Position numbers and translations under genes: made by a program | Source: Mustelus asterias | Taxonomy: Eukaryota | Reading direction: 5' to 3' | DNA length: 64,000 nucleotides | NCBI RefSeq assembly: GCF_964213995.1 | Contig: NC_135811.1 | Coordinates: 29,884,001 to 29,948,000, forward strand | Shown here: piece after piece, positions 6,887 through 62,078 of the stretch | Position numbering within the stretch: position 1 is the first letter of the stretch | Layout of the letters: each line of letters starts with the position of its first letter | Notes under the pieces: model-generated | Database searches by the model: none | What the model was told of the DNA's origin: nothing | Seen by the model: only the letters and a program-made list of their open reading frames with translations

Positions 6887-6953
6887 ATGGCACCCACAGC
6901 AAGAGCTGTTTTGTGTGTCTTTCTCATAACCTTTGCTTACGCTGAGGCCTCTG
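6887..6953 (+). CDS. Exon 1: signal peptide MAPTARAVLCVFLITFAYAEAS(G)
   Basis: Kozak-like GAAATGG, hydrophobic core, A-x-A cleavage motif, donor G|gtaagt, phase 1. Confidence 0.85.
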
Positions 6954-7229
6954 GTAAGTGAGAAAATATTCATTATTGTGCTAAATGTCATATTGTTCAA
7001 AAGTGACACCGGCAAATTATTATTTTAAATGATTTAAAGTGATTTGCGAAAGAGGTAAATGTGAAGAGAGAAAAATCTTTTTCACACAGCGAGTGATTTG
7101 GGTCTGGAATGCGCTGCCTGGAAGTGGAGGAGGCAGGTTCAGGGAAGGCATTCAAGAGCGCATGAGATGATTAATTGAATAGAAACAATATGCAGGGGAT
7201 GAGGAAAAGGCAGGGGAATGGCGCTAAGC

Positions 7230-8298
7230 AATTGGGTGATGAGTCTGGGAAAGGGTGTGTAGATAGTTTGAGTCATGTTGAGATCAAAAAGGAGGAGGTA
7301 TTGGGGTTCTTGAGAAACATTAAGGTAGACAAGTCCCTAGGGCCTGATGGGATATACCCCAGAATACTGAGAGAGGCAAGGGAGGAAATTGCTGGGGCCC
7401 TGAGCGAAATCTTTGTATCCTCACTGGTTACAGGGGAGGTCCCAGAGGATTGGCGAATAGCCAATGTTGTTCCTTTGTTTAAGAAGGGTAGCAAGAATAA
7501 TCCAGGTAATTACAGGCCTGTGAGCCTTACATCAGTGGTAGGGAAATTATTGGATAGGATTCTTTGAGACAGGCTTTATTCCCATTTAGAAATAAGTGGA
7601 CGTATTAGCGAGAGGCAACATGGTTTTGTGAAGGGGAGGTCATGGTCTCACTAACTTGATCGAGTTTTTTGAGGAAGTGATGAAGATGATTGATGCGGGT
7701 AGGGCAGTGGATGTTGTCTACATTGACTTCAGTAAGGCCTTTGACAAGGTCCCTCATGGCAGACTGGTGCAGAAGGTGAAGTCACATGGGATCAGAGGTG
7801 AGCTGGCAAGGTGGATACAAAACTGGCTCGGTCAAAGAAGACAGAGGGTAGCAGTGGAAGGGTGCATTTCTGAATGGAGGGCTGTGACAAGTGGTGTTCC
7901 TCAGGGATCAGTGCTGGGATCTTTGCTGTTTGTAATATATATAAATGATTTGGAGGAAAATGTAACTGGTTTGATTAGTAAGTTTGCGGATGACACCAAG
8001 GTTGGTGGATTTGTGGATAGCGATGAGGACCATCAGAGGATACAGCAGGATATAGATTAGTTGGAGACTTGGGCGGAGAGATGGCAGATGGAGTTTAATC
8101 TGGACAAATGTGAGGTAATGCATTTTGGAAGGTCTAATACAGATAGAAAATATACAGTAAATGGCAGAACCCTTAAGAGTATTGATAGGCAAAGGGATCT
8201 GGGTGTACAGGTACACAGGTCACTGAAAGTGGCAATGCAGGTGGAGAAAGTAGTCAAGAAGGCACATGGCATGCTTGCTTCCATCGACTGGGGTATTG
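7230..8298 (+). mobile_element. CR1/HER1 LINE reverse transcriptase fragment
   Basis: [44 protein letters not shown]; contains stops and frameshifts. Confidence 0.93.
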
Positions 8299-9415
8299 AC
8301 CTTGCTCTCTCCATGGCCTTTTCTCAATTCCATTGCCACGTTCCAGAGCCAGACATTCTGCCAGCATTTGCCCCATTCCTGTTGTATTTCATGTCACCTA
8401 ATCCTTCGCTTCCCTATGAGGATTTGAGTTCATGTTCAGCCAAATTCTTCACAACTCCTAAAGTCAGCAATCCGACATCCCCCCAGTCTGTGGGGCCATG
8501 TGACATCAGGATGGCACTCCTTCTGAGACTTGTACTGACCATCCGGCTCACCAACGGGGGGAACCTCTCAAGAGAGCGTGCCATACTGAGCCTCAATGGA
8601 AATAGTAAGTGACGCGGTGTGTACCAGCAGGAGGGATATGGTGAGGGGCATGGAGAACAGAGAATTTATCTAATTAATGTGGACATTTTCTGCTTCTCTG
8701 AGTCCAATAAAATACATCTCAGTGGGACTTAGAGAGGGCATTTCCGCTGTTGCTGGACTTGCAATTACAACCAACATTTCCAGTATGTTTGGACGAGGGA
8801 TGAAGTGGGAGGAGGAGCAAGGGGTGTGTGTGACTTTCCTTGTCATCCGCACCTGACCATGTGAACTTGACTCAGCTCAATGGCAGATTTCACTGGGGAA
8901 GATGTCACATCATGGGGGAATTTTCTGACCAGTGCTTCTGTTGGTCAAAGGATAACAAACATTTTGATGTTTGGTTAATTATGATTATTAATTACAGCTT
9001 CTTTTGATTATTTTACTTGGCATAACTTGACTGAAAGTTCCCAAAAGGATATTCAAATGCCTTCAAATTAACATGATGTCCTTGGCAGTCTGTAGGTGCT
9101 GGTTTTTGTCTCTTGGCAGGTAGCACCGAACATTTTTTCTGCAGAATGATGTACCTGGCATCTTTTCATAGGGTAGGATTTTCCAGCCCTTCTGGTCAGT
9201 GAGATTTTTCCAGTCACTCTGAAGGTGATCCTGCCGTGGGACCTTACTGGTGGCGTGACCATAGACAATGCAAATGGCCATTGACTTCAGAGAAACTGGA
9301 AAATCCTGCTGGTGACCAATGGCAAGCTGGCTCTGCTGTGGTAAAACCCACTGCAGGGTTCTGGAAAATCCCAGCCACAGATTCTCCTATTGTCCCCAAC
9401 ATGTCAGAGAGGGGA

Positions 9416-9693
9416 TGATGTGTGATTGATTCACACGGGAGGCTAGGACGTGCCCGGGAATAAAGGCTTTTATTTACGACAAAATAGGAGCACACTACTT
9501 AACAATATTATCCCAGACTAAAGGCTACTAGGAAGTAGCAGTGACCTTTATACTCCTGTAAGAAGGCGGAGCCGAACGGAGTGTACCACATAAAGAATAA
9601 TAACAGGTGGAACACCCAAACCCTAACCCCAACAGTAACAAGAGTAACATATGTACAAGTACCCATAGTGGTAACCATCTATGGTTCACCACA
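9416..9693 (-). mobile_element. Solo LTR (278 bp, TG...CA) with 5-bp TSD GGGGA
   Basis: GGGGA at 9411-9415 and 9694-9698; paralogous units read GAGAGGGGATTCCATT without the insert; TATA and AATAAA-like motifs on the minus strand. Confidence 0.75.
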
Positions 9694-10034
9694 GGGGATT
9701 CCATTGTTGCTGCCAATAATGGTGCTAAGGAACGAAAGGAATAAAAATTTACAGCAAATGGCACAAAATTATATCAGAGCTGGTCATTCTTTATTAAATG
9801 TTGTTCAAAAAAATCAAATGAAGTTTGAGGCTTCCATAGATATGAAAAATATTCTTCTTACTTATGCATTTATGTTAGTTGTTTTGACAGAAACATATTC
9901 CCATTTATCACCAAATCTATTGTTCTATTTTTGAATGATAAAAGTTCATTACATTTCTTCGAAAATTTGTAATCAGTAACATTGTTAACAATCAACACAA
10001 GTTCAGATCTAACTTGACATTTACTGTATAACAG

Positions 10035-10073
10035 GACGCAGTGACTCATGCAGATACAACTGTGGGGGCTATT
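10035..10073 (+). pseudogene. 3'-truncated SMB exon copy (acceptor intact, no donor)
   Basis: tgtataacag|GACGCAGTGACTCATGCAGATACAACTGTGGGGGCTATT, then switches to intron-derived sequence. Confidence 0.75.
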
Positions 10074-10734
10074 TACCATTTACTCAGCTCAATGACAGAT
10101 TTCACTGCGGGGGATGTCACTTCATGGGGGAATTTTCTGGCCCATATTTCTGTTTTTCAAAGGATTCTGTATGTTTGTCGGATGTTTGTTCAACTGTGAA
10201 TATTAATTCTAATTTATTATGGTAATTTTGCTTGCCACTCCTGGACTGAAAGCTCCCAAAGAAAATTCAAATGCTTCAAATTAACATCATGTTCCTGGCA
10301 GTCTGTAGATGCTGGATTTTGTCTGTAGGCAGCTAGCACCGAGCATCTTTTCTACAGCAAGATGTACCTGGCATCTGTTCATAGGGTGGGATTTCTCAGC
10401 CCTTCCCGCTAGCAGGATTTTCCAGTTACGCCGAAGATGGCTCTGTGGCCAATGGCAAGCTGGCTCTGCTGCAGGAAAACCCACTGCAGGGATCTGGAAA
10501 ATTCCAGCTGTAGATTCTCCTATTGTCCCCAACATGTCAGAGAGGGGATTCCATTGTTGCTGATAGTGCGAAGGAGGGAAAGGAATATGAATTTACAACG
10601 AGTGGAACAAAGATATATCAGAGCTGGTCATTCTTTCTTACATATTGTACAAAAAGATCAAATGAAGTTTAAGACTTCGATAGATATGAAAAATATTCTT
10701 CTTACTTACGCATTTATTTTCATTATCTTGACAG

Positions 10735-10758
10735 TAACAACTGATTCTGCAACATCAG
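10735..10758 (+). CDS. 24-nt linker microexon (VTTDSATSG)
   Basis: ttgacag|...TCAG|gtatgg, phase 1-1, repeated before each SMB exon. Confidence 0.75.
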
Positions 10759-10899: not shown

Positions 10900-11025
10900 G
10901 ACACAGTGGGTCATGCAGATACAACTGTGGGGGCTATTCTTCAGATTGTTCCTGTGATTACAACTGTCGAAATTATGGTAGCTGTTGTTCTGATTTCTGT
11001 GATTACTGCCCTTACATTAATTACG
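10900..11025 (+). CDS. SMB exon 1 (GHSGSCRYNCGGYSSDCSCDYNCRNYGSCCSDFCDYCPYINY)
   Basis: 126 nt, aacag|...G|gtaaga, phase 1-1; C-x3-C...C-x-C-x3-C-x5-CC-x-DF somatomedin-B spacing. Confidence 0.9.
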
Positions 11026-12755: not shown

Positions 12756-12782
12756 GATACTGCAGTGCTTATTCAACAGAAG
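12756..12782 (+). CDS. 27-nt Cys microexon (GYCSAYSTE)
   Basis: tttctgtacag|...AAG|gttagt, phase 1-1; one copy follows each intact SMB exon. Confidence 0.75.
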
Positions 12783-14993: not shown

Positions 14994-15017
14994 TAACAAC
15001 TGATTCTCCAACATCAG
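14994..15017 (+). CDS. 24-nt linker microexon (VTTDSPTSG)
   Basis: ttgacag|...TCAG|gtatgg; its own SMB copy is truncated, so inclusion is uncertain. Confidence 0.6.
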
Positions 15018-15160: not shown

Positions 15161-15199
15161 GACGCAGTGACTCATGCAGATACAACTGTGGGGGCTATT
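15161..15199 (+). pseudogene. 3'-truncated SMB exon copy (same breakpoint as 10035-10073)
   Basis: Intact acceptor, 39 nt of SMB, then ACAATTTACTCAGCTC intron sequence. Confidence 0.75.
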
Positions 15200-15843: not shown

Positions 15844-15867
15844 CAACAACTGATACTCCAACATCAG
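15844..15867 (+). CDS. 24-nt linker microexon (ATTDTPTSG)
   Basis: ttgacag|...TCAG|gtatgg, phase 1-1. Confidence 0.75.
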
Positions 15868-16010: not shown

Positions 16011-16136
16011 GACACAGTGGCTCATGCAGATACAACTGTGGGGGCTATTCTTCAGGTTGTTCCTGTGATTACAACTGTCGATATAATGGCAACTGTTGTT
16101 CTGATTTCTGTGATTACTGCCCTCACGTTAATTCCG
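16011..16136 (+). CDS. SMB exon 2 (…SCRYNCGGYSSGCSCDYNCRYNGNCCSDFCDYCPHVNS)
   Basis: 126 nt, canonical sites, 9 Cys. Confidence 0.9.
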
Positions 16137-17706
16137 GTAAGAGAACTTTCAGATAATAAACTAATGTTTAAATTTATCTTCTTATTTATTCTGATTAAAG
16201 TGATGAACATAAACATAAGAATGGAACATTAATGAAGATTATTGTTCACATTGTGAATCAGTGTAACTGTGTCCAGCTGATGTGAGATTTGTTTCTGTAA
16301 TGTGTGTTGTGATCCGTACTTTATGGACAGAATGGGTTTGTGCTGTACTTTTTAAACGTTAAAACTGCGTCAGAAACGCAGTGTTTGCAAAATGTCTCCC
16401 TGGATCCCATCTTTTCAGTGAAATGTGGCAGGCCTGATTTTGGCAAGTGTAATTGTCGCTCATTAGGAGTGTGTGCTGGGAGTATGGAGACAGATCGGGA
16501 TGATGCTCGGTGTGTAACATTGATTTGACGCTCACCCTGGCACGTCCAACCTCATCACTCCAACTCATGTCCTCCCTAAACCTCACACAGCTGGACATGA
16601 ATTCAGGAGTAGGAAGGACCACCCATCAACCTGATATAAAAGAATCATCAACGACCTGCATGCTCGTGTCAGGTTCAGAGTTGAACTGGATTTTGCTGAC
16701 TTTGTAGAAATGTTGTGAGTTTTCCACTGTTGTTGTAAATTATTGAAGTTTGCAGGGAGTAGTGACACACCTGGTGAAGGCCTTGGTTTTCACTTCAAGG
16801 TTTCAGCTCAGACCCCTTGCTGTCAGTCATGGGCGATTTTCTACCAACAAACCTTGGCCGGCAGAGATTGAGGAGAGGCAGCACAGAGGAGGGCAAGATG
16901 CTCACAGGGAGGAGGACGGGTAGATAGGCTCACCAGATAATGCCTCATGTCCCAGAGTCTTCAAAGGGCAAATCACTTACCTCAACCTTATTGAAGACCA
17001 AGCAGGAACCTTCTATAGGCGTCCAGACCTGACCATTTACTCAGCTCAATGGCAGATTTCATTGCGGAGGATGTCACTTCATGGGGGAATTTTCTGTCCC
17101 ATATTTCTGTTTTTCAAAGAATTCTGTATGTTTGTCGGATGTTTGTTCAACTATGAACATTAATTCTAATTTATTATGGTAATTTTGCTTGCCACTTCTG
17201 GACTGAAAGCTCCCAAAGAAAATTCAAATGCTTCAAATTAACATCATGTTCCTGGCAGTCTGTAGATGCTGGATTTTGTCTGTAGACAGCTAGTACCGAG
17301 CATCTTTTCTACAGCAAGATGTACCTGGCATCTGTTCACAGGGCTGTTGTCTGCCAGCTGGAGAGTCAGTGAGAGACTGTTTTGTCCAATTTACGGGAGA
17401 GTCCACCAAATCACACGTTAATCAGACAGCGGTTTCAAAGGTTTTCACTCCCTGAATGTGCAATAGAATATGACAATCCTCAGCATGTATTTTATTTCTG
17501 GATGGGCATGGGGCTGTATATATTGTGTGTGACAGGCTGGCTGCTACAGGGTGACTTGTACTGTCCAGTTGTTTGTAGATTTGAACAATACTTGATAACT
17601 ATTTCTCTTTTTGTCATGTGTTATATTAATATTTCTGAGTATGAATGGTAGAAGATTCTTCAAAAACACTTGACAATGCAACTAAGCTGAATGTGTTTCT
17701 GTACAG

Positions 17707-17733
17707 GATACTGCAGTGTTTATTCAACAACAG
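17707..17733 (+). CDS. 27-nt Cys microexon (GYCSVYSTT)
   Basis: gtacag|...CAG|gtgagt. Confidence 0.8.
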
Positions 17734-19299
17734 GTGAGTAACATTTCAATTCATTTTCAGTTACTTTATCAGTTTGTATATTTGCTGACTATAGATCTGT
17801 TAGAGCAATTAATCCCAATGGCTGTACTCAGCGAATCACATCGTTGATTTGATAAAGTTTTTCTCTGTTGCCGTCTAAAGCCTGAATAATATCTCTGTAA
17901 CCATGAGTTCATCCAAATCTCTGCTGTCCATTCTCCGTTCGGGAGTTACAATTGACCATCGGATATAGGGATTCAGTGAGACTGTTCACTCCGTTATGTC
18001 GAGGGGTGATGGGACATTGACACTTACCGAGAACAGTAACCCTCAGCCCGTGTTTGCAGCATCTTTGACAGGATCGTCCCTGATGGACATTGGAAATGTC
18101 TCGTTCACTCTTCTACCTTTAATCCTTATTCTTTAATCAAATGAAGTTTCAGTTTGAATAGATATAAAAATGTTCTTGTGGCTTCTGCATTGATTTTTAT
18201 TATTTTCACTGGGTCTAGTGAAACTACATTAATAGCCACGGAATCAACCTTCAAGGACACATATTCGTCCACTTCTGAACAATAGAACTTATTTACATTT
18301 CTTTGATAATTATGGTTTTCAATGTTTTTTTACAGTGAATGTAACGGCTACATGAGAAGAAATAGGGGCAGACCAGGCCATTTGGCCCATCAAACCTGCT
18401 CCTGAATTCAGTGAGATCATGGTTGGTCTGATTGTGGCCAAAACTCCATTTTCCTCTCCCTTGACTCCCTTGTCGATCAAAAATCTGTCCCGCTGCACAT
18501 TGACTATGATCAATGAGCCATCATCCTCTGCTCACTGGGATGGAGAATTTCACAGATTAATAACCATCTGAGAGGAGAAATTCAAATCACCATTTTAAAT
18601 TATTTTGTTAGGGTGAAAAATACAGCTATTCGGCTGCAGTGTACTTCAATCTCAAGAAAACCAGACAAAGACTCTTGCAATGGAATTTTCCTATTCTGCC
18701 CGCCACGGCAATTGTAGCGGGCAGGACACGGACCATGCAAAGGTCCGTTGACCTTGGGCAGGATTTTCCGGTCTTAGAGTGAGCGCGGCTGGCAAATCCT
18801 GCCTTTGGACATTAAGGCAAGGCCTTTATTATGAATTATAGTACAGGCCGGCCCCAGCGCTCCAACCAGTGGTACACCAGGAAGAGCCTTGGTTCAAGAA
18901 TTGTACAGACAGTTAACAGTTAAAACCCAGTTACAAGAAATTTGCATATACCAATCAAAAGATGTACATTTGCACAAGGGTTATCTTTTTCCACTCCCAG
19001 TTATTGATTAGATTTACATCATGCCTAAGGTGTGAACACAATTGACCAATTATGACTTGTGCACATCTCCTTGATTATAATAATATGCAATCAGTGTAAT
19101 GGTTTGTACAATGTTATGTGGTCTGATTTACTACCGGCTCCAATTAGTTTTCAACATAACAATTTATATCTGGCTTGTGGACATCAGTTACACTCTCTTG
19201 ACCCGTTTTCCCAGTGCTTAATGAATTCTCTAGAGTTGCCTCCCTAAGTTATCATTGGATGATTTGGCTGTCAGTGTAGGTGGTGGATAACCCCACATT

Positions 19300-19369
19300 G
19301 TTTTTACAGACCTTGAGATCTAACACCTGTGAAGGTTTTTACAGACCTTGAGATCTAACACCTGTGAAG
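19300..19369. repeat. 35-bp tandem duplication (single copy in the paralogous block near 48725)
   Basis: GTTTTTACAGACCTTGAGATCTAACACCTGTGAAG twice. Confidence 0.85.
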
Positions 19370-20476: not shown

Positions 20477-20488
20477 CACAAGAACCAG
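20477..20488 (+). CDS. 12-nt microexon (AQEP) preceding CUB1
   Basis: tctttttcag|CACAAGAACCAG|gtaact, phase 1-1, identical copy at 49867. Confidence 0.65.
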
Positions 20489-20849
20489 GTAACTATTTTT
20501 AAATGTTCCTCATCTTTTTCTTTAAGCTTAAACTTCAGACTGAAGGGATCCCAAATATAGATATTTCACAGCTGAGTTCTGAGCAATTTTATTCTTGCTT
20601 CAATATTTTCCTTCCAAACCTCTTGTCATGAGCTCCCATTTCATGAACACTGTGATTATGCTTAGGTACAGTTACATACAGCCCAGCAACCATCTGCTAT
20701 TTCACCATGTTGCCATTCTTCACGTATGACCCTGAGGTTTGTGGCTGAGCTGACAACAATGGAGCCAATATTGTCAAAGATTTGACTCAACTGTGCAGTC
20801 AACATTTGACAATAATGGAAGAAGATTACATTTTCCTTTATTTTTCATT

Positions 20850-21835: not shown

Positions 21836-22287
21836 AACCATAACCACCATATAAAAGGTTGAAATGGTAGTAATGCTGCAAATATTAGTAAGAGAAATGA
21901 TTTTAAAATACAGAAATCTAATGGTCTGCTGCAGTAAAGTAACAAAAGGATCCAAATCTTTGAAGATTGGTCACAATGGACTGGTAGAAATGTCAATTCC
22001 TGCAGAACTGCAGTCCTTCAATATTCACATTCACATCTAAAAATCACAAAGTTCACCTTTTTATGATCAAGGGCAAAATAAATCCACACATAGATTTGGG
22101 GAATACTTTCCAAAACTTTCTGCTGAAAATCAAATTCTTTTGCAAACTCTTTTGTTAATTTCTATATATTAGAAAGTGCATAACTCCACCAAGCACTCTG
22201 CAAGTTTATTGAGTTAACAGCTGGATCATACAAACAGGACAACTCGCGATTTTATTGACAATTAGGTTATCCTGGTCTTAGCCAAGA

Positions 22288-24341: not shown

Positions 24342-24489
24342 TTGGAACTTGCGGAGGGTATTTTGATGCTGCCTATGGGTCTGTTCTCAGTCCCTATTAT
24401 CCAAACTCCTATCCACATAATGCACAATGCACGTGGTATATAAGGCCGGTCCAAAACCAAAGAATCAAGCTGGAATTCAGTTACCTTGA
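24342..24489 (+). CDS. CUB1 N-half exon (VGTCGGYFDAAYGSVLSPYYPNSYPHNAQCTWYIR…KLEFSYLE)
   Basis: CGG...SPxYP..Y....C.W.I CUB signature; taatag|...GA|gtgagt, phase 1-2. Confidence 0.93.
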
Positions 24490-27066: not shown

Positions 27067-27275
27067 GCTGGAAATTACATCGAGTTGCTCATATGATTAT
27101 ATTGAAATATATGATGGGCCATCAACAAATTCGGCTTTGCTTTCTAAATTCTGTGATGGATTAAATCAGATATTTGTATCATCATCGAACAGTATGACAG
27201 TTTATTTTAGATCTGATGGCAGTATTACTAGACGTGGGTTTGCTGCAAACTACTATCTTCTGCCAAATGATGACG
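27067..27275 (+). CDS. CUB1 C-half exon (LEITSSCSYDYIEIYDGPS…FCDG…FRSDGSITRRGFAANY)
   Basis: CxYD..EIYDG, FxSDxS and GF CUB motifs; ccacag|...G|gtaaga, phase 2-1. Confidence 0.93.
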
Positions 27276-28039: not shown

Positions 28040-28063
28040 CAACATCTACACCTGCAACATCAG
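28040..28063 (+). CDS. 24-nt linker microexon (ATSTPATSG)
   Basis: ttgacag|...TCAG|gtatgg. Confidence 0.75.
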
Positions 28064-28206: not shown

Positions 28207-28332
28207 GACACAGTGGCTCATGCAGATACAACTGTGGGGGCTATTCTTCAGATTGTTCCTGTGATTACAACTGTCGAAATTATGGTAGCTGTTGTTCTGA
28301 TTTCTGTGATCACTGCCCTCACGTTAATTACG
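28207..28332 (+). CDS. SMB exon 3 (…CSCDYNCRNYGSCCSDFCDHCPHVNY)
   Basis: 126 nt, canonical sites. Confidence 0.9.
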
Positions 28333-28744: not shown

Positions 28745-28863
28745 TGGCTCATGCAGATACAAATGTGGGGGCTATTCTTCAGATTGTTCCTGTGATTACA
28801 ACTGTCAATATTATAACAGGTGTTGTTCTGATTTCTGTGATCACTGCCCTCACGTTAATTCCA
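28745..28863 (+). pseudogene. 5'-truncated SMB exon lacking its acceptor
   Basis: Begins at TGGCTCATGC directly after unrelated intron sequence; donor A|gtaaga is retained. Confidence 0.75.
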
Positions 28864-30137: not shown

Positions 30138-30164
30138 GATACTGCAGTGCTTATTCAACAACAG
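30138..30164 (+). CDS. 27-nt Cys microexon (GYCSAYSTT)
   Basis: gtacag|...CAG|gtgagt. Confidence 0.8.
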
Positions 30165-31317: not shown

Positions 31318-31335
31318 CTCCATCTGAAACATCAG
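31318..31335 (+). CDS. 18-nt linker microexon (APSETSG), shifted acceptor
   Basis: Ancestral gacag is now gacac; new AG in ctaccag; donor gtatgg; frame preserved. Confidence 0.6.
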
Positions 31336-31511: not shown

Positions 31512-31535
31512 CACCAACTGATTCTGTATCATCTG
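31512..31535 (+). CDS. 24-nt linker microexon (APTDSVSSG)
   Basis: tttttaatag|...CTG|gtatgg. Confidence 0.65.
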
Positions 31536-31678: not shown

Positions 31679-31804
31679 GACGCAATGGCTCATGCAGATA
31701 CAACTGTGGGGGCTATTCTTCAGATTGTTCCTGTGGTTACAACTGTCAATATTATGGCAACTGTTGTTCTGATTTCTGTGATTACTGCCCTCACATTAAT
31801 TACG
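31679..31804 (+). CDS. SMB exon 4 (GRNGSCRYNCGGYSSDCSCGYNCQYYGNCCSDFCDYCPHINY)
   Basis: 126 nt, canonical sites. Confidence 0.9.
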
Positions 31805-33071: not shown

Positions 33072-33098
33072 GATACTGCAGTGCTTATTTAACATCAT
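33072..33098 (+). CDS. 27-nt Cys microexon (GYCSAYLTS, last nt T)
   Basis: gtacag|...CAT|gtgagt. Confidence 0.7.
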
Positions 33099-34905: not shown

Positions 34906-34923
34906 CTCCATCTGCAACATCAG
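34906..34923 (+). CDS. 18-nt linker microexon (SPSATSG)
   Basis: gacactaccag|CTCCATCTGCAACATCAG|gtatgc. Confidence 0.65.
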
Positions 34924-35066: not shown

Positions 35067-35192
35067 GACGCAATGGCTCATGCAGATACAACTGTGGGGG
35101 CTATTCTTCAGATTGTTCCTGTGGTTACAACTGTCAATATTATGGCAACTGTTGTTCTGATTTCTGTGATTACTGCCCTCACATTAATTACG
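35067..35192 (+). CDS. SMB exon 5 (identical to SMB exon 4)
   Basis: 126 nt, canonical sites. Confidence 0.9.
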
Positions 35193-36465: not shown

Positions 36466-36492
36466 GATACTGCAGTGCTTATTTAACATCAT
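36466..36492 (+). CDS. 27-nt Cys microexon (GYCSAYLTS, last nt T)
   Basis: gtacag|...CAT|gtgagt. Confidence 0.7.
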
Positions 36493-37646: not shown

Positions 37647-37664
37647 CTCCATCTGCAACATCAG
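37647..37664 (+). CDS. 18-nt linker microexon (SPSATSG)
   Basis: gacactaccag|...TCAG|gtatgc. Confidence 0.65.
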
Positions 37665-37807: not shown

Positions 37808-37933
37808 GACGCAATGGCTCATGCAGATACAACTGTGGGGGCTATTCTTCAGATTGTTCCTGTGGTTACAACTGTCAATATTATGGCAACTGTTGTTCTG
37901 ATTTCTGTGATTACTGCCCTCACATTAATTACG
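37808..37933 (+). CDS. SMB exon 6 (identical to SMB exons 4 and 5)
   Basis: 126 nt, canonical sites. Confidence 0.9.
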
Positions 37934-42809: not shown

Positions 42810-42836
42810 GATACTGCAGTGCTAATTCAACATCAT
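42810..42836 (+). CDS. 27-nt Cys microexon (GYCSANSTS, last nt T)
   Basis: gtacag|...CAT|gtgagt. Confidence 0.7.
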
Positions 42837-43700: not shown

Positions 43701-43718
43701 CTCCATCTGCAACATCAG
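43701..43718 (+). CDS. 18-nt linker microexon (SPSATSG)
   Basis: gacactaccag|...TCAG|gtatgc. Confidence 0.65.
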
Positions 43719-43861: not shown

Positions 43862-43987
43862 GACACAGTGGCTCATGCAGATACAACTGTGGGGGCTATT
43901 CTTCAGATTGTTCCTGTGATTATAACTGTCGATATTATGGTAGCTGTTGTTCTGATTTCTGTGATTACTGCCCTCACGTTAATTACG
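43862..43987 (+). CDS. SMB exon 7 (…CSCDYNCRYYGSCCSDFCDYCPHVNY)
   Basis: 126 nt, tagcag| acceptor, G|gtaaga donor. Confidence 0.9.
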
Positions 43988-47045: not shown

Positions 47046-47132
47046 ATAATATTAATATTTCTGAGTATGAATGGTAGAAGATTCTTCAAAAACACTTGAC
47101 AATGCAACTAAACTGAATGTGTTTCTGTACAG

Positions 47133-47159
47133 GATACTGCAGTGTTTATTCAACAACAG
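47133..47159 (+). CDS. 27-nt Cys microexon (GYCSVYSTT)
   Basis: gtacag|...CAG|gtgagt. Confidence 0.8.
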
Positions 47160-49866
47160 GTGAGTAACATTTCAATTCATTTTCAGTTACTTTATCAGTT
47201 TGTATATTTGCTGTCCATAGATCTGTTAGAGCAATTAATCCCAATGGTTGTACTCAGCGAATCACATCGTTGATTTGAGAAAGTTTTTCTCTGCTGCCGT
47301 CTAAAGCCTGAATAATATCTCTGTAACCATGAGTTCATCCAAATCTCTGCTGTCCATTCTCCGTTCGGGAGTTACAATTGACCATCGGATATAGGGATTC
47401 AGTGAGACTGTTCACTCCGTTATGTCGAGGGGTGATGGGACATTGACACTTACCAAGAACAGTAACCCTCAGCCCGTGTTTGCAGCATCTTTGACAGGAT
47501 CGTCCCTGATGGACATTGGAAATGTCCCGTTCACTCTTCTACCTTTAATCCTTATTCTTTAATCAAATGAAGTTTCAGTTTGAATAGATATAAAAATGTT
47601 CTTGTGGCTTCTGCATTGATTTTTATTATTTTCACTGGGTCTAGTGAAACTACATTAATAGCCACGGAATCAACCTTCAAGGACACATATTCGTCCACTT
47701 CTGAACAATAGAACTTATTTACATTTCTTTGATAATTATGGTTTTCAATGTTTTTTACAGTGAATGTAACGGCTACATGAGAAGAAATAGGGGCAGACCA
47801 GGCCATTTGGCCCATCAAACCTGCTCCTGAATTCAGTGAGATCATGGTTGGTCTGATTGTGGCCAAAACTCCATTTTCCTCTCCCTTGACTCCCTTGTCG
47901 ATCAAAAATCTGTCCCGCTGCGCATTGACTATGATCAATGAGCCATCATCCTCTGCTCACTGGGATGGAGAATTTCACAGATTAATAACCATCTGAGAGG
48001 AGAAATTCAAATCACCATTTTAAATTATTTTGTTAGGGTGAAAAATACAGCTATTCGGCTGCAGTGTACTTCAATCTCAAGAAAACCAGACAAAGACTCT
48101 TGCAATGGAATTTTCCTATTCTGCCCGCCACGGCAATTGTAGCGGGCAGGACACGGACCATGCAAAGGTCCGTTGACCTTGGGCAGGATTTTCCGGTCTT
48201 AGAGTGAGCGCGGCTGGCAAATCCTGCCTTTGGACATGAAGGCAAGGCCTTTATTATGAATTATAGTACGGGCCGGCCCCAGCGCTCCAACCAGTGGTAC
48301 ACCAGGAAGAGCCTTGGTTCAAGAATTGTACAGACAGTTAACAGTTAAAACCCAGTTACAAGAAATTTGCATATACCAGTCAAAAGATGTATATTTGCAC
48401 AAGGGTTATCTTTTTCCACTCCCAGTTATTGATTAGATTTACATCATGCCTAAGGTGGGAACACAATTGACCAATTATGACTTGTGCACATCTACTTGAT
48501 TATAATAATATGCAATCAGTGTAATGGTTTGTACAATGTTATGTGGTCTGATTTACTACCGGCTCCAATTAGTTTTTAACATAACAATTTATATCTGGCT
48601 TGTGGACATCAGTTACACTCTCTTGTCCCGTTTTCCCAGTGCTTAATGAATTCTCTAGAGTTGCCTCCCTAAGTTACCATTGGATGATTTGGCTGTCAGT
48701 GTAGGTGGTGGATAACCCCACATTGTTTTTACAGACCTTGAGATCTAACACCTGTGAAGTCCTGCCTGGGAACTAGCCCCTGGCTGGTTGTGTCCTTGGG
48801 GTTCCTCCTTGCAGCTAACAGCTTGCCTCTCACAGACTCAGCTGAAGATTTTCAAACCCTTTAAGTAAATAGTGGAGGTGAAAAACATATACTGGAGTTT
48901 TAAATTAATTTTTTCAATATAACATCCATATAACCTGCTACACCCTTTTCACTTTCATAGAGTAAGATCAGCATGCGTTGGCGATCTCTAATTGCCCTTG
49001 AGAAGGTAGTGGTGAACCTCTTTATCGAAGCCCTGGTGTAGGCCCATCCACTATGTTGTTGGGAAGGGTGTTCCGGAATTTCTGACCCAATGACAGCAAA
49101 GGAATGGTGATATCGATCTAAATCAAGATGGTGTGTGTCTTAGAGGGGAATTTGCAGCTGGTGGTGTTCCCATCCATTTGTTGCACTTGTCCTTCTGGGT
49201 GGATCAAAATGGGTGGATAGAAACAAATGGTTCTCAGTACTTGAGGGGTCTAAACCTAAAAGGCAGAGTTGCTGAAAAAAGCTGTTGAAGTTTTTCACCC
49301 TGCACTCATCAGGACCAATTCGTAAGAATATCAATTCTAAAGTGAACAACAATTTATACTATCTGAGAGTGGTGATTGGTTAGCAAGTGGGCTATAATTA
49401 GTAGAATTGGTATTGTTGCGAACATGTAACGATAAGTGCAAGACAAAGAGCTTCAACAGCTTAATTCTTCTCAACAATACTGAAGTTCTGTACCACCAAA
49501 TGGCTACAAAATGAAATGAATGATATTTTGAACAGGAGACTCAGTTTTCACTTCCTCACTCAGAGTCATGAGGAGATTCAATTCATTTCCAGGCAGAATG
49601 GACATTAATATTCAAGATCAGTTGACAGGTAGAAAAGGGGATGAAGGGATATGATAACAAAGTGTAAATATGAATAGAATTATTTACCCCCATAGTGGGT
49701 AAATATTGCCATGGGCTTGTAGGGATGAATTGTCTGCCATTTTCCGATTTGTATGCATTATATCTGTTATCTTATCCCTTTCAAAAATATGTTATCATTA
49801 TTTGTTTATGGTTAACTGAATCATTTTCCTAATTATAATCTGTACCTTTTAAAAAATCTTTTTCAG

Positions 49867-49878
49867 CACAAGAACCAG
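49867..49878 (+). CDS. 12-nt microexon (AQEP) preceding CUB2
   Basis: tctttttcag|CACAAGAACCAG|gtaact. Confidence 0.65.
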
Positions 49879-51736
49879 GTAACTATTTTTAAATGTTCCT
49901 CATCTTTTTCTTTAAGCTTAAACTTCAGACTGAAGGGATCCCAAATATAGATATTTCACAGCTGAGTTCTGAGCAATTTTATTCTTGCTTCAATATTTTC
50001 CTTCCAAACCTCTTGTCATGAGCTCCCATTTCATGAACACTGTGATTATGCTTAGGTACAGTTACATACAGCCCAGCAACCATCTGCTATTTCACCATGT
50101 TGCCACTCCTCATGTGTGCCCCTAAAGTTTGTGGCTGAGCTGACAACAATGGAGCCAATATTGTCAAAGATTTGACTCAACTGTGCAGTCAACATTTGAC
50201 AATAATGGAAGAAGATTACATTTTCCTTCATTATTCATTCTCGGGATTTGGGCGTCGATGGCTAGGCCAACATTCATTGCCCATCCGTAATTGTCCTTGA
50301 GAAGGTGGTGGTGAGTTGCCTTCTTGAACCGTTGCTGTCCATGTGGTGTAGATATATACACAGTGCTGTTAGGGAGGGGGTTTTCAGGATTTTGATGCAG
50401 CGACAGTGAACAAACGGCGATTTAGTCAGGATAGTGTGCGGATTTTGGGGGAAACATCCAGGTGGTGGAATCTCCATGTACCTGCTGCCCTTGTCCTTCT
50501 GGAATTTTAGGTTGTGGATTTGGAAGGTGCTGTCTTAGAAGGCTTGGTGAGTTCCTACAGTGCTTCTTACAGACTGTACTCACTGCTGCCACTGTGCTTC
50601 AGTGATGGAGGGATCTAATGTGTGTGGAAGGGGTGCCAATCAAGTGGGTGCTTTGTCCTGGGTGGTGTTGAGCTTCTTGAGTGTTATTGGAGCTACACTC
50701 ATCCAGGCAAGTTAACATACTACATCACACTCCTGACTTTTGCCTTGTAGACGGTAGACAGGCTTTGGGGAGTCAGGAAGTGAGTTACTCGCCACAGGAT
50801 TTCTATCCTTTGACCTGCTCTTGTAGCCACAATATTTATATGTCCAGTCCAGTTCTGTTTCTGGTCAGTGGTAACTCCAGAATGTTGACAGTGGGGGATT
50901 CAGTGATGGTACTGCCATTGAGTATTAAGGGTTGATAATCAGAATCTTTCCTCTTGTAACTAGTCATTGCCTCGCACTTTTGTAGTGTAAACGTTACTTG
51001 CCACCTTTCAGCCCAAGTCCCGTTGCATTTGGGCACGGACTGCTTCAGTATCTGAGGAATCACAGATAGTGCTGAACATTGTGCAATCATCAGTGAACAT
51101 CCCCATTCTGACCTTATGACGGTGGGAAGGTCATTGATGAAGCAGGTGAACATAGTTGGGCCTAGGACACTACCCTGAGGAACTCCTGCGCTGATGTCCC
51201 GGAGCTGAGAAGATTGACCTCTAATAACCATAACCATCATATAAAAGGTTGAAATGGTAGTAATGCTGCAAATATTAGTAAGAGAAATGATTTTAAAATA
51301 CAGAAATCTAATGGTCTGCTGCAGTAAAGTAACAAAAGGATCTAAATCTTTGAAGATTGGTCACAATGGACTGGTAGAAATGTCAATTCCTGCAGAACTG
51401 CAGTCCTTCAATATTCACATTCACATCTAAAAATCACAAAGTTCACCTTTTTATGATCAAGGGCAAAATAAATCCACACATAGATTTGGGGAATACTTTC
51501 CAAAACTTTCTGCTGAAAATCAAATTCTTTTGCAAACTCTTTTGTTAATTTCTATATATTAGAAAGTGCATAACTCCACCAAGCACTCTGCAAGTTTATT
51601 GAGTTAACAGCTGGATCATACAAACAGGACAACCCGCGATTTTATTGACAATTAGGTTATCCTGGTCTTAGCCAAGATAACAGTAGGGTTGCTATTGGCC
51701 TCAGTACCCAGATAAGCTAGTAAAGTCAAACAAAAA

Positions 51737-53132
51737 CAGTGGAAGGATGCATTTCTGAATGGAGGGCTGTGACAAGTGATGTTCCTCAGGGATCAGTGCT
51801 GGGACCTTTGCTGTTTGTAATATATATAAATGATTTGGAAGAAAATGTAATTGGTTTGATTAGTAAGTTTGCGGACGACACAAAAGTTGGTGGATTTGCG
51901 GATAGCGATGAGGACCGTCAGAGGATACAACAGGATATAGAATGGTTGGAGACTTGGGGGGAGAGATGGCAGATGGAGTTTAATCCAGACAACGGCGGCA
52001 CGGTGGCACAGTAGTTAGGACCGCTGCCTCACAGCTCCAGGCACCTGGGTTCGAATCCCGGCTTGGGTCACTGTCTGTGTGGAGTTTGCACGTTCTCCCC
52101 ATGTTTGCATGGATTTCCTCCGGGTCCTCCGGTTTCCTCCCACAGTCCAAAGAAGTGCGGGTTAGGTTGATTGGCCATGTTAAATTACTGCTTAGTGTCG
52201 TGGGATGCGTAGGTTAGAGGGATTAGCAGGGTAAATATGTGGAGTTACGGGGAAAGGGCCTGGGTGGGATTGTTGTCTGTGCAGACTCGATGCGCCGAGT
52301 GGCCTCCTTCTGCACTGTACGATTCTATGATTCTATGAAATGTGAGGTGATGTATTTTGGAAGGTCTAATACAAATGGAAAATATACAGTAAATGGCAGA
52401 ACCCTTAAGAGTATTCATAAGCTGAAGGATCAGAGTGCGCAAGTACACAGGTCACTGAAAGTGGTAACGCACATGGAGAAGGATGTCAAGAAGGCATACA
52501 GCATGCTTGCCTTCATTGGCCGGGGCATTGAGTTTAAAAATTGGCAAGTCATGTTGCAGCTTTATAGAACCTTAGGCCGCACTTGGAATATAGTGATCAA
52601 TTCTGGTTGCCACACTGCCAGAATGATGTGGAGGCTTTGGAGAGGGTACAGAAACGATTTACCAGGTTGTTGCCTGGCATGGAGCGCATTAGCTATGAGG
52701 AGAAGTTGGAGAAACTTGGTTTGTTCTCACTGGGACGATGGAGGTTGAGGAGCAACCTGATGGAAGTCTACAAGTTTATGAGGGACATGGACAGAGTGGA
52801 TAGTCAGAAGCATTTTCCCAGGGTGGAAGAGTCAATTACTAGGGGGCATTGATTTAAGGTGCGAGGGGCAAGGTTTAAAGGAGATGTACGAGGCAAGTTT
52901 TTTTACACAGAGGGTAGTGGGTGCCTGGAACTCGCTGCCGGGGAGGTAGTGGAAGCAGATACAGCAGTGACTTTCAAGGGGCGTCTTGACAAATACATGA
53001 ATAGGATGGGAATGGAGGGATCTGGTCCCAGGAAGGGTAGGGGGTTTTAGTTCAGTCGGGCAGCATGGTCGGTGCAGGCTTGGAGGTCCGAAGGACCGGT
53101 TCCTGTGCTGTAATTTTCTTTGTTCTTTGTTC
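51737..53132 (+). mobile_element. CR1 LINE 3' portion with nested HE1-like SINE (paralog of 22456-23942)
   Basis: Same RT motifs and same insertion site. Confidence 0.9.
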
Positions 53133-53531: not shown

Positions 53532-53679
53532 TTGAATCATGCGGAGGGTACCTTGACTCTGTCTATGGGTCTGTTCTCAGTCCCAATTATCCACACTACT
53601 ATCCAAATTATGCACAATGCATGTGGTTTATAAGAGCGGACAGAAACCAAAGAATCAAGCTGGAATTCAGTGACATCGA
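53532..53679 (+). CDS. CUB2 N-half exon (VESCGGYLDSVYGSVLSPNYPHYYPNYAQCMWFIR…KLEFSDIE)
   Basis: CUB signature, 148 nt, phase 1-2. Confidence 0.93.
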
Positions 53680-55886: not shown

Positions 55887-56095
55887 GCTGGAAACTTCAT
55901 CGAGTTGCTCATTTGATTATATTGCAATCTATGATGGGCCATCAACACATTCAGCTTTGCTTTCTAAATTCTGTTATGGATCAGATCAGATATTTGTATC
56001 ATCATCGAACAGTATGACAATTTATTTTAGAACTGATGGCAGTGTTACTCGACGTGGGTTTGCTGCAAACTACTATGTTCTGCCGAATGATGACG
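55887..56095 (+). CDS. CUB2 C-half exon (LETSSSCSFDYIAIYDGPS…FRTDGSVTRRGFAANY)
   Basis: 209 nt, phase 2-1. Confidence 0.93.
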
Positions 56096-57848
56096 GTGAG
56101 ATTGGTTACACTTCTTGTCTCAGAATTGCAATGCACTTTCAGCTAGAAGAAATGTAGGGAAATTGAAGCTTGGTATATTTTGCACATTTAAAGTTCAGTT
56201 CAAAAATCTTTATCTGTATATCCATTAGAAATGGAGCCAAAATGTAGATTTCCAATTTACCACCCATGTGCAATGCTGCTCTTGCAGTCAGAAAACCATT
56301 ATAGAATCTGACTGATATGTATTTCCATTGATTTCAATCGCAACAGGAGTTTATACAATGGCGACAAGTTGAAAATCTATCCCACCTTTTCAAAGTAGCT
56401 GTATCATTGTTTGTCTTTTTACGTGAACCCTATTCGCATAAAACATGTCACAGTTAATCCAACCAACACTCCTCTTGCTGTGAGAGGAAAGACACTTGTA
56501 TTTATATTACCTGGGACTGAAATTCTGAACTTTGGTAACGTTAGTGAAAAATTAACACAGTACTAAAATATACTTGTTGCTAAAATTTGCAATTAAAAGA
56601 ATTTCAGTTCATATATTTCAGTTTTTGTTAATACAAATTCAGTTGAAAATATAACATGAATAAATTCTGTATGGAAAAATTCATGGGCAATACAATGACT
56701 GGTGATAGAGTTTTGAAATGATACAACATCATCCTCCAGCAGTCATTTTATTTTTTAAAGAAAGAAAAACTCCTCCTCCATGTGAAGGTTGTTTCATTCC
56801 AAGGAAAACCATCTCAGAGTTGGAAACAGTGGTAGAACACAGGTCTCAATAACTTGAGGTCCAATCATGTATTGACAAATGGTACTGATGATTGACCAAG
56901 AATGTTCCGATCCCTACAGAGACCCATAACTTTTAAACAGAGATTTGAATTCCCAGTGACGATTCAAAGGATTGCACAAGTTTTTACATTTCTAGTTTTT
57001 GACTGAAACAAACAAACTAAAATCAATTCTGACTGAACATTACTTAGTAGGCAATTAAGAAACTAAAGAAAAGGTTACACTGTGTAAAACACCACATTGC
57101 ATTTTTCCCTCACACTACGCTCTTTGCAATCTTTACAGGAAACACTCCAAACTTACTCCCAGCTTCCAACAAATTTGTTTCTTTTTCCCCATTTTGCTGA
57201 GTTGTTACATCCAGTGTCAGCCAAAAATTGTTTCCTTCAGTTTTCTGAGAATCCATAAAAAGATTTCCAGCAGCAATGCGCAGTCTGGTGACTCCTTCTC
57301 CTGGCCACACCAAGACAAATCATCCAGCGTCCTTAAATCTTCATAGGTCCTCTCTCGATAACCAATGAATGTGCTCCCACCTGTCCAGTAGCTAACAGCC
57401 TTCTTTTCTACTGTTCACATTGGCTGCTGTTTCCATGTCTCTTTCTCTCTCTCTGGGATTCTCACTCTATCTCTCTGTCGAGGATGTCTAAGTCAGTAAT
57501 TCCGAAAACTTATATGTCTATCCATAGCAAAGTCAGCTGCTCTTTTATTTTGTGTTCAGCTGTTAAATCTGGCACTTGGGTATCAATATTTCTGGATCTG
57601 GGCCTCCCCATCCCCCTGGCAATCAGGTCAAATAGGCTTATCATTAGGTAAGACTAGTAGTTCATTTTCATTTCTCCATTTTACCTTGAATTAAAGAGAC
57701 AGTTTCATACATAGTAATATTATAAACAAATAACAGGTGAAATTAGTAACACGAAACATTTTAGTACTGGTGCCAATACAGATAATCATTCTCTAAAACA
57801 AGTTCATTTCTGATGTATAGAATTCATTCAACTTTGATTTTTTTCCAG

Positions 57849-58024
57849 GTTTTTTAATCTGCTCGACAGATTATATGGAAGCAAAAATTAGTAGGTCCTA
57901 CCTCCACCTTCTGGGTTTTAATGAACACAGTCTTTATCTGAATGATCAAAACTGCTCGCCGATAATAACAACTCATGACGTGGTGTTCAAAATACCACTT
58001 AATATGTGTGGTACAGAACGGCAG
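57849..58024 (+). CDS. ZP-N exon (GFLICSTDYMEAKISRSYL…LNDQNCSP…FKIPLNMCGTERQ)
   Basis: C…M...I, L.D..C and PL..CGT ZP-N motifs; ttccag|...CAG|gtaagg. Confidence 0.93.
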
Positions 58025-59340: not shown

Positions 59341-59741
59341 GACAACAATGGCAGCATCATATATTCCAACGCCATCCGGTCTTCACCTTCTAACTCAGTT
59401 ATAACTCGGGAAACAAATTTACAGTTCAACATTGGCTGTGAGATGCAGCAGGATACCATGTTTAAAATAATGTATGTGACAAATGAAAGCTTGACAGCTG
59501 ACATAGTAGAAAACGTGACAGCATCTGGCACCTTTAATATCAGCATGGCATTCTATGACTCGCCATCGTTCACCAGGCCAGTGCTGGATTCACCTTACTA
59601 TGTGGATCTGAGGCAGGACCTGTTCCTACAAGTGAACTTGCACAGTTCAGACATGCATCTCGTGGTTTTTGTGGACACCTGCACAGCGTCACCTTATAGT
59701 TATGACTGGACATCAAGGACCTATGATCTAATAAAGAATGG
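59341..59741 (+). CDS. ZP-N/ZP-C exon (IYSNAI…GCEMQ…PYYVDLRQDLFLQV…VFVDTCTASP…YDLIKNG)
   Basis: CUZD1/DMBT1-type ZP motifs; cacag|...GG|gtaaga, phase 0-2. Confidence 0.95.
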
Positions 59742-59836
59742 GTAAGAAATGTTAACCTTTCATCAAAATGTTCCTGATTGAGATATATTGACATTTATTC
59801 AGAATATCTTAAATCCAAACTGCAACAGTCACTGCG

Positions 59837-60594: not shown

Positions 60595-60958
60595 ATGGAA
60601 TCCCTACAGTGCAGAAGGAGGCCATTCGGCCCATCGAGTCCGTTCCAACTCTCTGACAGAGTGTCTTACCCAGGCCCTCTCCCCCACGCTATCTTATCCC
60701 CGTAACTCCTCACATTTACCATGGTGAATCCATCTAATATGCACAACTTTGGACAAAAAGGGGCAATTTAGCATGGCCAATCCACCTAAGCTGCACATCT
60801 TCAGACTGTGGAAAGAAACTGGAACACGTGGAGGAAACCCACACAGACACGGGGAGAATGTGCAAACTCCATTCTGACAGTCACCAAAGGTGGAATTGAA
60901 CCCAGGTCCTTGGAGCTGTGAGGCAGCAGTGCTAACCACTGTACTACTGTGCTGCCAT
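60595..60958 (-). mobile_element. HE1-like SINE
   Basis: Same family as 58703-59040. Confidence 0.82.
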
Positions 60959-61252
60959 CCCGGAATCAGATACTGTCAACCATTTTTAACGGGCTCCCAA
61001 GTCTAACTGACTCAGTAGAAATCCAGGACTGAGAGTAGGACTCTGAGCAGCAATATGACCAACTACTTTTGTGTCGAGCTGTTACAAACTACACCTGACT
61101 TGGAATAAGTTCCAGTTTGAGTTTCTGTCTTCATAACTGGCAGGTTACATGGGCTTGTCTCCAGGCAGGTTCAGTATGAAGTCACATCCCCTTCTCCAAA
61201 CTATTCAATTTTACCTTGAATTAAAGGAGACAGTTTAAAACATAACAGTCTC

Positions 61253-61368
61253 GTCAAGTCCAGCATTCGGAACAGCTATAATATAGCAACATTGCTATAT
61301 TACAGCTGTTCCGAATGCTGGACTTGACATGTAAAGGCATAGTACATAAATGTACTATGCATTTACAT
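61253..61368. repeat. Two abutting near-perfect inverted repeats (37-bp and 19-bp arms)
   Basis: 61253-61289/61292-61328 and 61329-61347/61350-61368, one mismatch each, 2-nt spacers. Confidence 0.9.
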
Positions 61369-61436
61369 TTTCATTGAAACTCTAGTTTGAACTAAGATTG
61401 TATGCTCCAGAATTAATACTGAAATTTATTTTACAG

Positions 61437-61708
61437 GTGCGTTAGGGATGGGACATACGAGTCATATTCTTCGCCAGCGAATGACATTGCACGATTTAAG
61501 TTCAATGCTTTTAAATTCCTCAACCTTAATCCTTCAGTCTATCTGCAGTGTAAACTTGTGGTCTGTAAAGCTTATGATTATTCTTCTCGCTGTTACCGTG
61601 GGTGCTTATCTCGACATAAAAGAGCCATAACCTCTTCAAAAGGAAGCACTGATGTTCTCATCGGACCCATTGAACTGAAAAATGATCTAAAAGATCATGA
61701 AAGTAGAG
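61437..61708 (+). CDS. ZP-C exon with furin site RHKR and EHP (DVLIGPIEL)
   Basis: GCVRDGTY, ARFKFNAFKF, VYLQCKLVVCKAYDYSSRCYRGC; phase 2-1. Confidence 0.95.
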
Positions 61709-61858
61709 GTGAGCCAATCGTATTACTTACTGATTACATCACCAAAAAGCATGGTTAAATCAGAAACTTGAATATCAAAGTACACTAAAATTTTGTAGCT
61801 CCCACTATTGGTTATATTTATTTTTCAAAAGTAAGAAATTGTTTTGAATGTTTTTCAG

Positions 61859-61902
61859 GACTTGAGAAAAAAGTGGACGGAGCTGATGAGACAACTATCT
61901 AA
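61859..61902 (+). CDS. Last coding exon as sequenced (GLEKKVDGADETTI*)
   Basis: tttttcag| acceptor; in-frame TAA at 61900-61902. Confidence 0.7.
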
Positions 61903-62078
61903 TCCAGCTTTCCATTCTGTCGTTGTTGGTTCTGGTTGCGGTTAGTTCAGTTTTGGTTGCCATGATGTTAAAACTATACAGGAGCCAACAAAGGGACTGT
62001 TCTTGTGAGCAGCTTCGAGGCAATTTTTCCAAGTGTCGCCGCTCACCAAATGGAATAGTCCATGGAGTTCTGCTCTGA
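61890..62078 (+). pseudogene. Out-of-frame transmembrane helix and cytoplasmic tail
   Basis: The -1 frame reads DNYLIQLSILSLLVLVAVSSVLVAMMLKLYRSQQRDC…HGVLL*. Confidence 0.7.

Follow-up and report, generated by a model that had tools for sequence, protein, structure and literature searches.

What kind of protein is encoded by a gene in which 18 of the 34 exons are only 12-27 nucleotides (nt) long? The question is raised by a 64,000-nt stretch of the genome of the shark Mustelus asterias (RefSeq assembly GCF_964213995.1, contig NC_135811.1, positions 29,884,001 to 29,948,000), hereafter the window, which carries such a gene on its + strand. The joined product has 986 amino acids (aa) and consists of a signal peptide, two somatomedin B (SMB) domains, a CUB domain, five further SMB domains, a second CUB domain and a zona pellucida (ZP) domain. 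An earlier note on this DNA had proposed a combinatorial system similar to the micro-exon genes (MEGs) of schistosomes, and this interpretation is only partly supported. We consider it quite likely that the locus is a single shark gene of the DMBT1/CUZD1 family, coding for a secreted multivalent ZP protein with SMB domains in place of SRCR domains. Whether the protein functions as a multivalent binder appears about evenly balanced.

The gene model is based on a reading of the 64-kb window and on a script placing AG/GT boundaries on every exon (Table 1). After one extra candidate was dropped, the script reproduced exactly the 34 exons, 18 microexons and 986 aa of the earlier note. The microexons, SMB exons and two-exon CUB units had been described as phase 1-1, and this holds for 18 of 18 microexons and all seven 126-nt SMB exons, and each CUB is a pair of exons, 1-2 plus 2-1. 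Extracellular modules that spread by shuffling are usually in phase 1-1. Altogether, microexons provide 135 of the 986 residues. At the level of single exons, Pfam identified Somatomedin_B in seven of seven SMB exons (E 6e-5 to 9e-4; two of the seven above the gathering score), CUB in four of four and ZP-N/ZP-C in three of three, which is the domain content that had been expected. No SRCR domain was found by Pfam in the 15 larger exon pieces, the introns not being scanned for SRCR exons, and the 34-exon product is fully explained by signal, SMB, linkers, CUB and ZP.

To which family does this gene belong? ZP exon b is 100% identical to the M. asterias RefSeq protein named "CUB and zona pellucida-like domain-containing protein 1", and the ZP exon is 74-86% identical to that of most other sharks; judged from sequence, membership of the DMBT1/CUZD1 (CUB-ZP) family is clear. 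The relatives compared here and below are database gene models. The search with the Scyliorhinus SMB region gave 149 matches among 3908 candidates, and family counts are among the matches listed (120). From the ZP-exon and SMB-region searches 163 database proteins were fetched, with SMB domains counted by pattern; 119 of them carry SMB, CUB and ZP together, with 2-14 SMBs, so that the domain set itself is not new, as had been suspected. These 119 are named DMBT1-like or cuzd1, and a transmembrane helix is present in two and absent from 117. The SMB-CUB-SMB-CUB-ZP layout was detected in 18 of the fetched proteins, and in Pristiophorus the same layout is annotated with 14 SMBs. CUB is expanded in Cetorhinus (nine) and Narcine (five), and SRCR and SMB occur together in Alosa models and in fragmentary models of Heptranchias; different lineages, to judge by these models, expand different cassettes. 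The literature searched, mostly open-access and with supplements outside its scope (cuzd1 expression tables may exist), gave no description of the SMB-bearing CUB-ZP form. The gene is a new member of a widely annotated, apparently unstudied family and not a new class of system, and our analysis highlights a common fish protein family that is without description in that literature.

In an unrooted ZP tree of 40 rows, 13 cartilaginous-fish rows lie on one side of a branch with values of 98/93, and the cartilaginous fish adjoin mammalian DMBT1 (99/93). We found no support for the two CUBs being ancient CUB1 and CUB2 orthologues: each has the other as its nearest row, and CUBs of other species match both about equally. 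No neighbouring gene for synteny was identified in the 64-kb window.

Are the microexons real? They include nine mA (five of 24 nt and four of 18 nt), seven mB (27 nt) and two mC (12 nt). With thresholds taken from the weakest model microexon, a splice-signal scan passed 27 candidates on the + strand, 18 of the model and nine others, and six on the minus strand. Splice signals alone are insufficient to prove the microexons, and all 18 amount to only three independent classes. Each class is supported by homology with the gene models of relatives. The mB peptides match those of Scyliorhinus and Heterodontus at up to nine of nine residues. The mA peptides, of which 73% is Ser/Thr/Pro, agree with those of relatives in only 3-4 of 6-8 residues, no more than chance would give for low-complexity sequence; a Heterodontus read-through model has the same flanking translation on either side of an mA-like exon, and the downstream mA flank is conserved in Chiloscyllium and Stegostoma. 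At the mC position there is a four-residue linker in Scyliorhinus, Narcine and Pristiophorus. Four mA copies have lost the acceptor AG, each with an in-frame AG 6 nt downstream which is absent from the other five; this shift is probably one inherited event.

Some eight mA-like copies that are decayed or truncated and lack a GT donor lie at ~9846-9895, ~18180-18265, ~30900-30975, ~33540-33594, ~34490-34562, ~37230-37303, ~43290-43350 and ~47610-47691, and in Scyliorhinus additional linker segments separate mB from the following SMB. Together these suggest birth and death of linker microexons. The dead SMB copies at 10035 and 15161 retain intact acceptors and could be decoy splice sites; the mA at 14994 is 143 nt upstream of one of them, and this mA may not be used. 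About 25 nt upstream of each mA (e.g. 10705-10734) the acceptor region is rich in T and in most copies includes a short motif containing TGC. Read-through translation shows this region to be conserved with Heterodontus, and it could act as a splicing enhancer for the microexon or as a branch region. An extra 27-nt microexon at 56761-56787 was rejected, its donor score being -1.4 against at least 5.1 for the others, and an insert at the CUB-ZP junction is present in none of 12 cartilaginous-fish proteins.

What does mB contribute to the protein? Each SMB exon encodes nine cysteines, and mB adds the tenth. Among 47 nine-cysteine SMB cores from 14 proteins (sharks, a ray, bichir, bowfin and gar) the mB cysteine follows in 41, and the six misses are a partial bichir model and models ending or diverging after the SMB exon. 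The AlphaFold model of a two-SMB protein of Chiloscyllium (46-row alignment, mean predicted local distance difference test score, pLDDT, of 67) is confident through the mB cysteine in both repeats, with pLDDT below 50 at residues 72-89 and 136-163. Its residues 25-60 superpose on the autotaxin and vitronectin SMBs with a root-mean-square deviation of 1.6-2.0 A, and the eight-cysteine SMB core aligns with SMB sequences from PDB. No Foldseek match had an E value of 0.001 or below, the best rows being SMB-bearing proteins, and ESM Atlas gave two SMB clusters, both below a score of 0.9. The simplest reading is probably that the mB cysteine closes a fifth disulfide. Because mB supplies the tenth cysteine of this predicted five-disulfide unit, and because intact SMB exons and mB occur 1:1 whereas mA is variable in number and length and decays, mB is probably constitutive.

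Teleost units have eight cysteines, with canonical spacing in 639 of 664. The last cysteine is missing in 17 of 712 units, mostly in submitter models, and in same-gene isoform models no listed unit drops it. This suggests that teleosts, too, may use a small exon carrying a structural cysteine. In gar (P0086, P0095) the eight-cysteine and ten-cysteine SMB types occur in one protein, possibly a transition state to the teleost form.

Could the microexons and SMB exons nevertheless be skipped independently, giving many isoforms with different specificities on a ZP filament, as in the MEG-like system first proposed? All modules are phase 1-1, and therefore any skip keeps the frame. Isoform models are numerous in relatives (numbered as high as X32, in clusters with 9 to 38 members), and 12 of the 15 variable SMB positions, none of them at a cysteine, change the residue. 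Some changes align with vitronectin Asp22 and Tyr28, which line the ligand pocket of that protein according to an excerpt of PMC8417595, and could affect specificity. However, just five of the 12 changes fall in codons 19-27, and the seven SMB exons have only five distinct sequences, copies 4-6 being identical. The claim of a combinatorial system is not supported: the microexons form three classes and not 18, mB is paired with the SMB exons, to which it supplies a structural cysteine, and the modules are 83-100% identical. The isoform models, moreover, change whole cassettes: such changes distinguish models whose ZP is identical or nearly so in eight of ten teleost species groups, with linker length differing as well in two of these groups, although short-read junctions among near-identical repeats can fake cassette isoforms. 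MEGs have 10-20 short exons and encode disordered proteins with few conserved motifs (bioRxiv 2023.06.21.545858, seen in excerpt), unlike a repeated folded domain. We therefore regard free combination of modules as improbable. The parallel with DMBT1 repeat-number variation, also drawn in the earlier note, has held up better, since isoform models of relatives differ in cassette number.

How was the array formed? Recent duplication or conversion of cassettes, in agreement with the tandem duplication claimed before, is seen directly. Between the regions of SMB5 and SMB6 there are 3 differences in 496 nt, and in the other 20 of the 21 cassette pairs there are 38-99 in ~490 nt; over the 2-kb units that surround SMB5 and SMB6 the identity is 96%. 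The mB-mC-CUB segment is present twice, with identity of 98% falling to ~92%, and 17623-22287 is 98.2% identical to 47049-51677. Seven intact and three broken SMB copies (10035-10073, 15161-15199 and 28745-28863) were counted, as previously stated. The first two broken copies share one truncation junction inside a tandem unit of ~865 nt and are therefore read as probable by-products of duplication. If false haplotype duplication had entered the assembly, part of the array would be an artefact, and both the 3/496 difference and the stretches within 17.6-22.3 kb and 47.0-51.7 kb that are under 1% different per 500 nt would fit. With the other 20 cassette pairs so diverged, the 2-kb units only 96% identical, the CUB copies 76% identical in protein and the same layout annotated in Pristiophorus, we consider such an artefact very improbable.

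Within the duplicated segment the first CUB exon (24342-24489 vs 53532-53679) has 23 differences in 146 nt, compared with 22 in 599 nt of the flanking introns (p 9e-7). It is thus about four times more diverged than they are, at synonymous and non-synonymous sites alike (the proportions of non-synonymous and synonymous differences, pN and pS, being equal), while the second CUB exon has no excess (p 0.75). The first CUB exon may be an island shielded from gene conversion. Copies of interspersed repeats, presumably remnants of long interspersed nuclear elements, lie in the introns on both strands (~7290-8300, ~23240-23940, ~38650-41500, ~46380-47040 and ~52440-53130), several of them being cassette-specific insertions.

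Where does the protein end? The earlier note overlooked the lesions of the transmembrane exon and placed the end of the gene at 62078. In tblastn with four shark C-termini, the last exon halts at TAA 61900-61902, where the four relatives read on, and the RefSeq model of M. asterias terminates at the same stop. A transmembrane helix follows 3' of this stop in another frame, shifted near 61914-61917, and 62078 is the stop of this out-of-frame remnant. That there are two separate lesions makes one erroneous base call an unlikely cause, and a stop plus a frameshift in the transmembrane exon mean that the product would be secreted, so the secretion assumed before was well founded. Among cartilaginous-fish models with a complete end the helix is kept in seven of 12 and absent from five, whereas in M. 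asterias the anchor is lost.

Such lesions could also belong to a recently decaying gene, or to one in which the SMB region is unexpressed and only CUB2-ZP is made. Besides the stop and frameshift, this would agree with the three SMB copies that are broken, with pN and pS being about equal, and with the annotation: the RefSeq model has 386 aa, begins inside CUB2 and lacks SMB and the first ~600 aa, and no Mustelus SMB protein was present among 17 matches from 46 candidates. But the RefSeq start has no signal peptide, and the other 33 exons are free of stops and frameshifts. All 63 SMB and seven mB cysteines are retained (chance ~0.03 for the SMB part), the lost mA acceptor was replaced in frame in four of four copies, and the anchor is absent from most relatives too. 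The ZP domain keeps 10 cysteines, as in Scyliorhinus and Heterodontus, and its branch has a normal length (0.089 vs 0.10 for Scyliorhinus), which favours a functional, secreted protein over a pseudogene. Decay we hold to be distinctly improbable. The short RefSeq model and a Heterodontus model in which eight SMB exons are read in the wrong frame instead illustrate the prediction that automated annotation would miss microexons. Our model supplies the full gene where the RefSeq protein omits ~60% of the coding sequence, and shows why the family is mis-annotated in sharks.

How might a secreted protein of the DMBT1/CUZD1 family work with such modules? The repeat is a cassette of three exons, the Ser/Thr/Pro linker mA, the nine-cysteine SMB exon and mB with the tenth cysteine. 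If mB closes the fifth disulfide, SMB and mB would therefore be one folded unit and mB constitutive, and freedom to vary would be limited to mA and to whole cassettes. Unequal crossing-over and conversion would copy the cassette, leaving truncated SMBs at the junctions and decayed linker exons in the introns. The dead transmembrane exon would give a secreted protein. ZP polymerisation, furin cleavage and O-glycosylation of linkers are known properties of the family; cleavage at the basic site after ZP-C, presumably of furin type, is probable. The small SMB domains would fill the role of the SRCR repeats in mammalian DMBT1, and at the surface of gut, duct or mucosa near-identical modules on glycosylated stalks would act as a multivalent binder, in which variation alters valence and length more than specificity. 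Four predictions follow: that a microexon closes a fifth disulfide, that mB is constitutive, that variation occurs at the level of cassettes and that the membrane anchor has been lost.

Several points weigh against this reading. The RefSeq model spans CUB2-ZP only. The fold was obtained for a protein of a relative, with a predicted template modelling score of 0.34 and no disulfide pairings in the output; structural Z-scores are low, at most 4.2, and the canonical SMB fold covers residues 25-60 only. Approximately unbiased (AU) tests, with 22 rows, no outgroup and Heptranchias and Polypterus left out, do not reject the groupings of sharks with ray-finned fish and of sharks with CUZD1 (p 0.10 and 0.11). 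In the SMB exons pN (0.056) is similar to pS (0.040) and close to the intron divergence (0.054), which also fits relaxed selection, and between the two CUBs pN is about equal to pS. The evidence on tissue is confined to zebrafish cuzd1, which two sources name in passing, in data on the intestine and on cells of the liver ducts (excerpts of PMC8959185 and bioRxiv 2025.01.09.631719).

A wider idea, tentative and rather unlikely, is that DMBT1/CUZD1 is an ancient display platform of jawed vertebrates with an interchangeable ligand-binding cassette, which would be SRCR in mammals and SMB in the majority of fishes, but CUB in the basking shark and electric ray, and mixed in the sevengill shark and shad. 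The fish array of five-disulfide, microexon-completed SMBs would then be a pattern-recognition lectin or agglutinin, its valence and specificity tuned by regulated splicing of cassettes and linker microexons and by copy-number alleles, with changes in the vitronectin-type pocket giving different ligands.

Positions of all features are collected in Table 1. Candidate polyadenylation signals are present 3' of the last exon at 62108, 62229 and 62358. Upstream of the gene lies a transposon at 995-2137 (+; DDE_Tnp_4, E 7e-36), presumably a PIF/Harbinger-like DNA transposon, with a long minus-strand open reading frame at 4314-3043 that may be its second one.

Table 1. Features of the M. asterias SMB-CUB-ZP gene, numbered from the first letter of the window
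Feature	Position	Strand	Basis or remark
TATA-like box, putative promoter element	6844..6853	+	~40 nt 5' of ATG; function inferred
Exon 1, signal peptide, phase 0-1	6887..6953	+	splice script; resembles N-termini of Scyliorhinus, Chiloscyllium models
Broken SMB copy, 3'-truncated, no donor	10035..10073	+	
mA, 24 nt, Ser/Thr/Pro linker	10735..10758	+	splice script, splice scoring, homology
SMB exon 1, 126 nt, 9 Cys	10900..11025	+	splice script, Pfam
mB, 27 nt, tenth Cys	12756..12782	+	splice script
mA, 24 nt, precedes dead SMB copy, use uncertain	14994..15017	+	splice script
Broken SMB copy, 3'-truncated at junction shared with 10035..10073	15161..15199	+	
mA, 24 nt	15844..15867	+	splice script
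SMB exon 2	16011..16136	+	splice script, Pfam
mB	17707..17733	+	splice script
mC, 12 nt, linker ahead of CUB1	20477..20488	+	splice script, relatives
CUB1 first exon, phase 1-2	24342..24489	+	splice script, Pfam
CUB1 second exon, phase 2-1	27067..27275	+	splice script, Pfam
mA, 24 nt	28040..28063	+	splice script
SMB exon 3	28207..28332	+	splice script, Pfam
Broken SMB copy, without first 7 nt and acceptor	28745..28863	+	
mB	30138..30164	+	splice script
mA, 18 nt, first AG lost and replaced by one 6 nt further 3'	31318..31335	+	splice script
mA, 24 nt	31512..31535	+	splice script
SMB exon 4	31679..31804	+	splice script, Pfam
mB	33072..33098	+	splice script
mA, 18 nt	34906..34923	+	splice script
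SMB exon 5, coding identical to SMB 4 and 6	35067..35192	+	splice script
mB	36466..36492	+	splice script
mA, 18 nt	37647..37664	+	splice script
SMB exon 6	37808..37933	+	splice script, Pfam
mB	42810..42836	+	splice script
mA, 18 nt	43701..43718	+	splice script
SMB exon 7	43862..43987	+	splice script, Pfam
mB	47133..47159	+	splice script
mC, 12 nt, linker ahead of CUB2	49867..49878	+	splice script, relatives
CUB2 first exon, RefSeq model begins inside	53532..53679	+	splice script, Pfam
CUB2 second exon	55887..56095	+	splice script, Pfam
ZP exon a (ZP-N)	57849..58024	+	splice script, Pfam
ZP exon b (end of ZP-N, ZP-C)	59341..59741	+	Pfam; 100% identity to RefSeq M. asterias protein
ZP exon c (end of ZP-C, basic site, hydrophobic patch)	61437..61708	+	splice script, Pfam
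Last coding exon, premature TAA 61900-61902	61859..61902	+	splice script, RefSeq, tblastn
Vestigial transmembrane helix and tail, frameshifted near 61914-61917	61903..62078	+	tblastn, four shark C-termini

How does this gene compare with known systems? The SMB-CUB-ZP proteins of fishes (cuzd1.1/cuzd1.2 or DMBT1-like; Scyliorhinus, Pristiophorus, Heterodontus, gar, bowfin and teleosts) have the same domain set and the same repeated cassette of SMB with a Thr/Ser/Pro linker, in variable number (2-14) and mostly without a transmembrane helix. The SMB units of teleosts are of the eight-cysteine type, whereas the M. asterias gene has the ten-cysteine type common to sharks, rays, bowfin and gar. The eight-cysteine core also aligns, by sequence and fold, with the SMB domains of vitronectin, ENPP1-3 and SUSD2, from which the shark unit differs by two extra cysteines and an extension of ~10 residues, partly on a microexon. 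Tetrapod CUZD1 shares the two CUBs and ZP, and human CUZD1 adjoins DMBT1 and has a similar structure (PMC3654630, excerpt). A repeat array is absent from CUZD1, which has nine exons and, in three reptile models, retains a transmembrane helix, while the shark gene has seven SMB cassettes and a broken anchor.

Schistosome MEGs, as far as the excerpt cited above describes them, likewise have many frame-preserving short exons, a secreted product and difficult annotation. Unlike in MEGs, the microexons here are linkers and the domain-closing piece of a repeated folded domain, most of the coding sequence is not made of distinct microexons, and no homology is expected. Mammalian DMBT1 (gp340, salivary agglutinin) has a repeats-CUB-repeat-CUB-ZP layout with Ser/Thr/Pro linkers, as here, and its alleles carry 8-13 SRCRs, the short allele binding bacteria 30-45% less (PMC5435793, excerpt). 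DMBT1 is the nearest tetrapod group in the ZP tree, and its models occur both with and without a transmembrane helix. Small exons probably encode its linkers. The shark gene differs from it in that tandem SRCRs are absent from the modelled product, the repeat being an SMB unit of ~50 aa, and in that five repeats and not one stand between the CUBs. On this comparison the cassette-level pattern appears to resemble DMBT1 more than schistosome MEGs. If the SMB array does bind microbes, it would be the fish counterpart of the DMBT1 SRCR array, and an example of module exchange on one scaffold.

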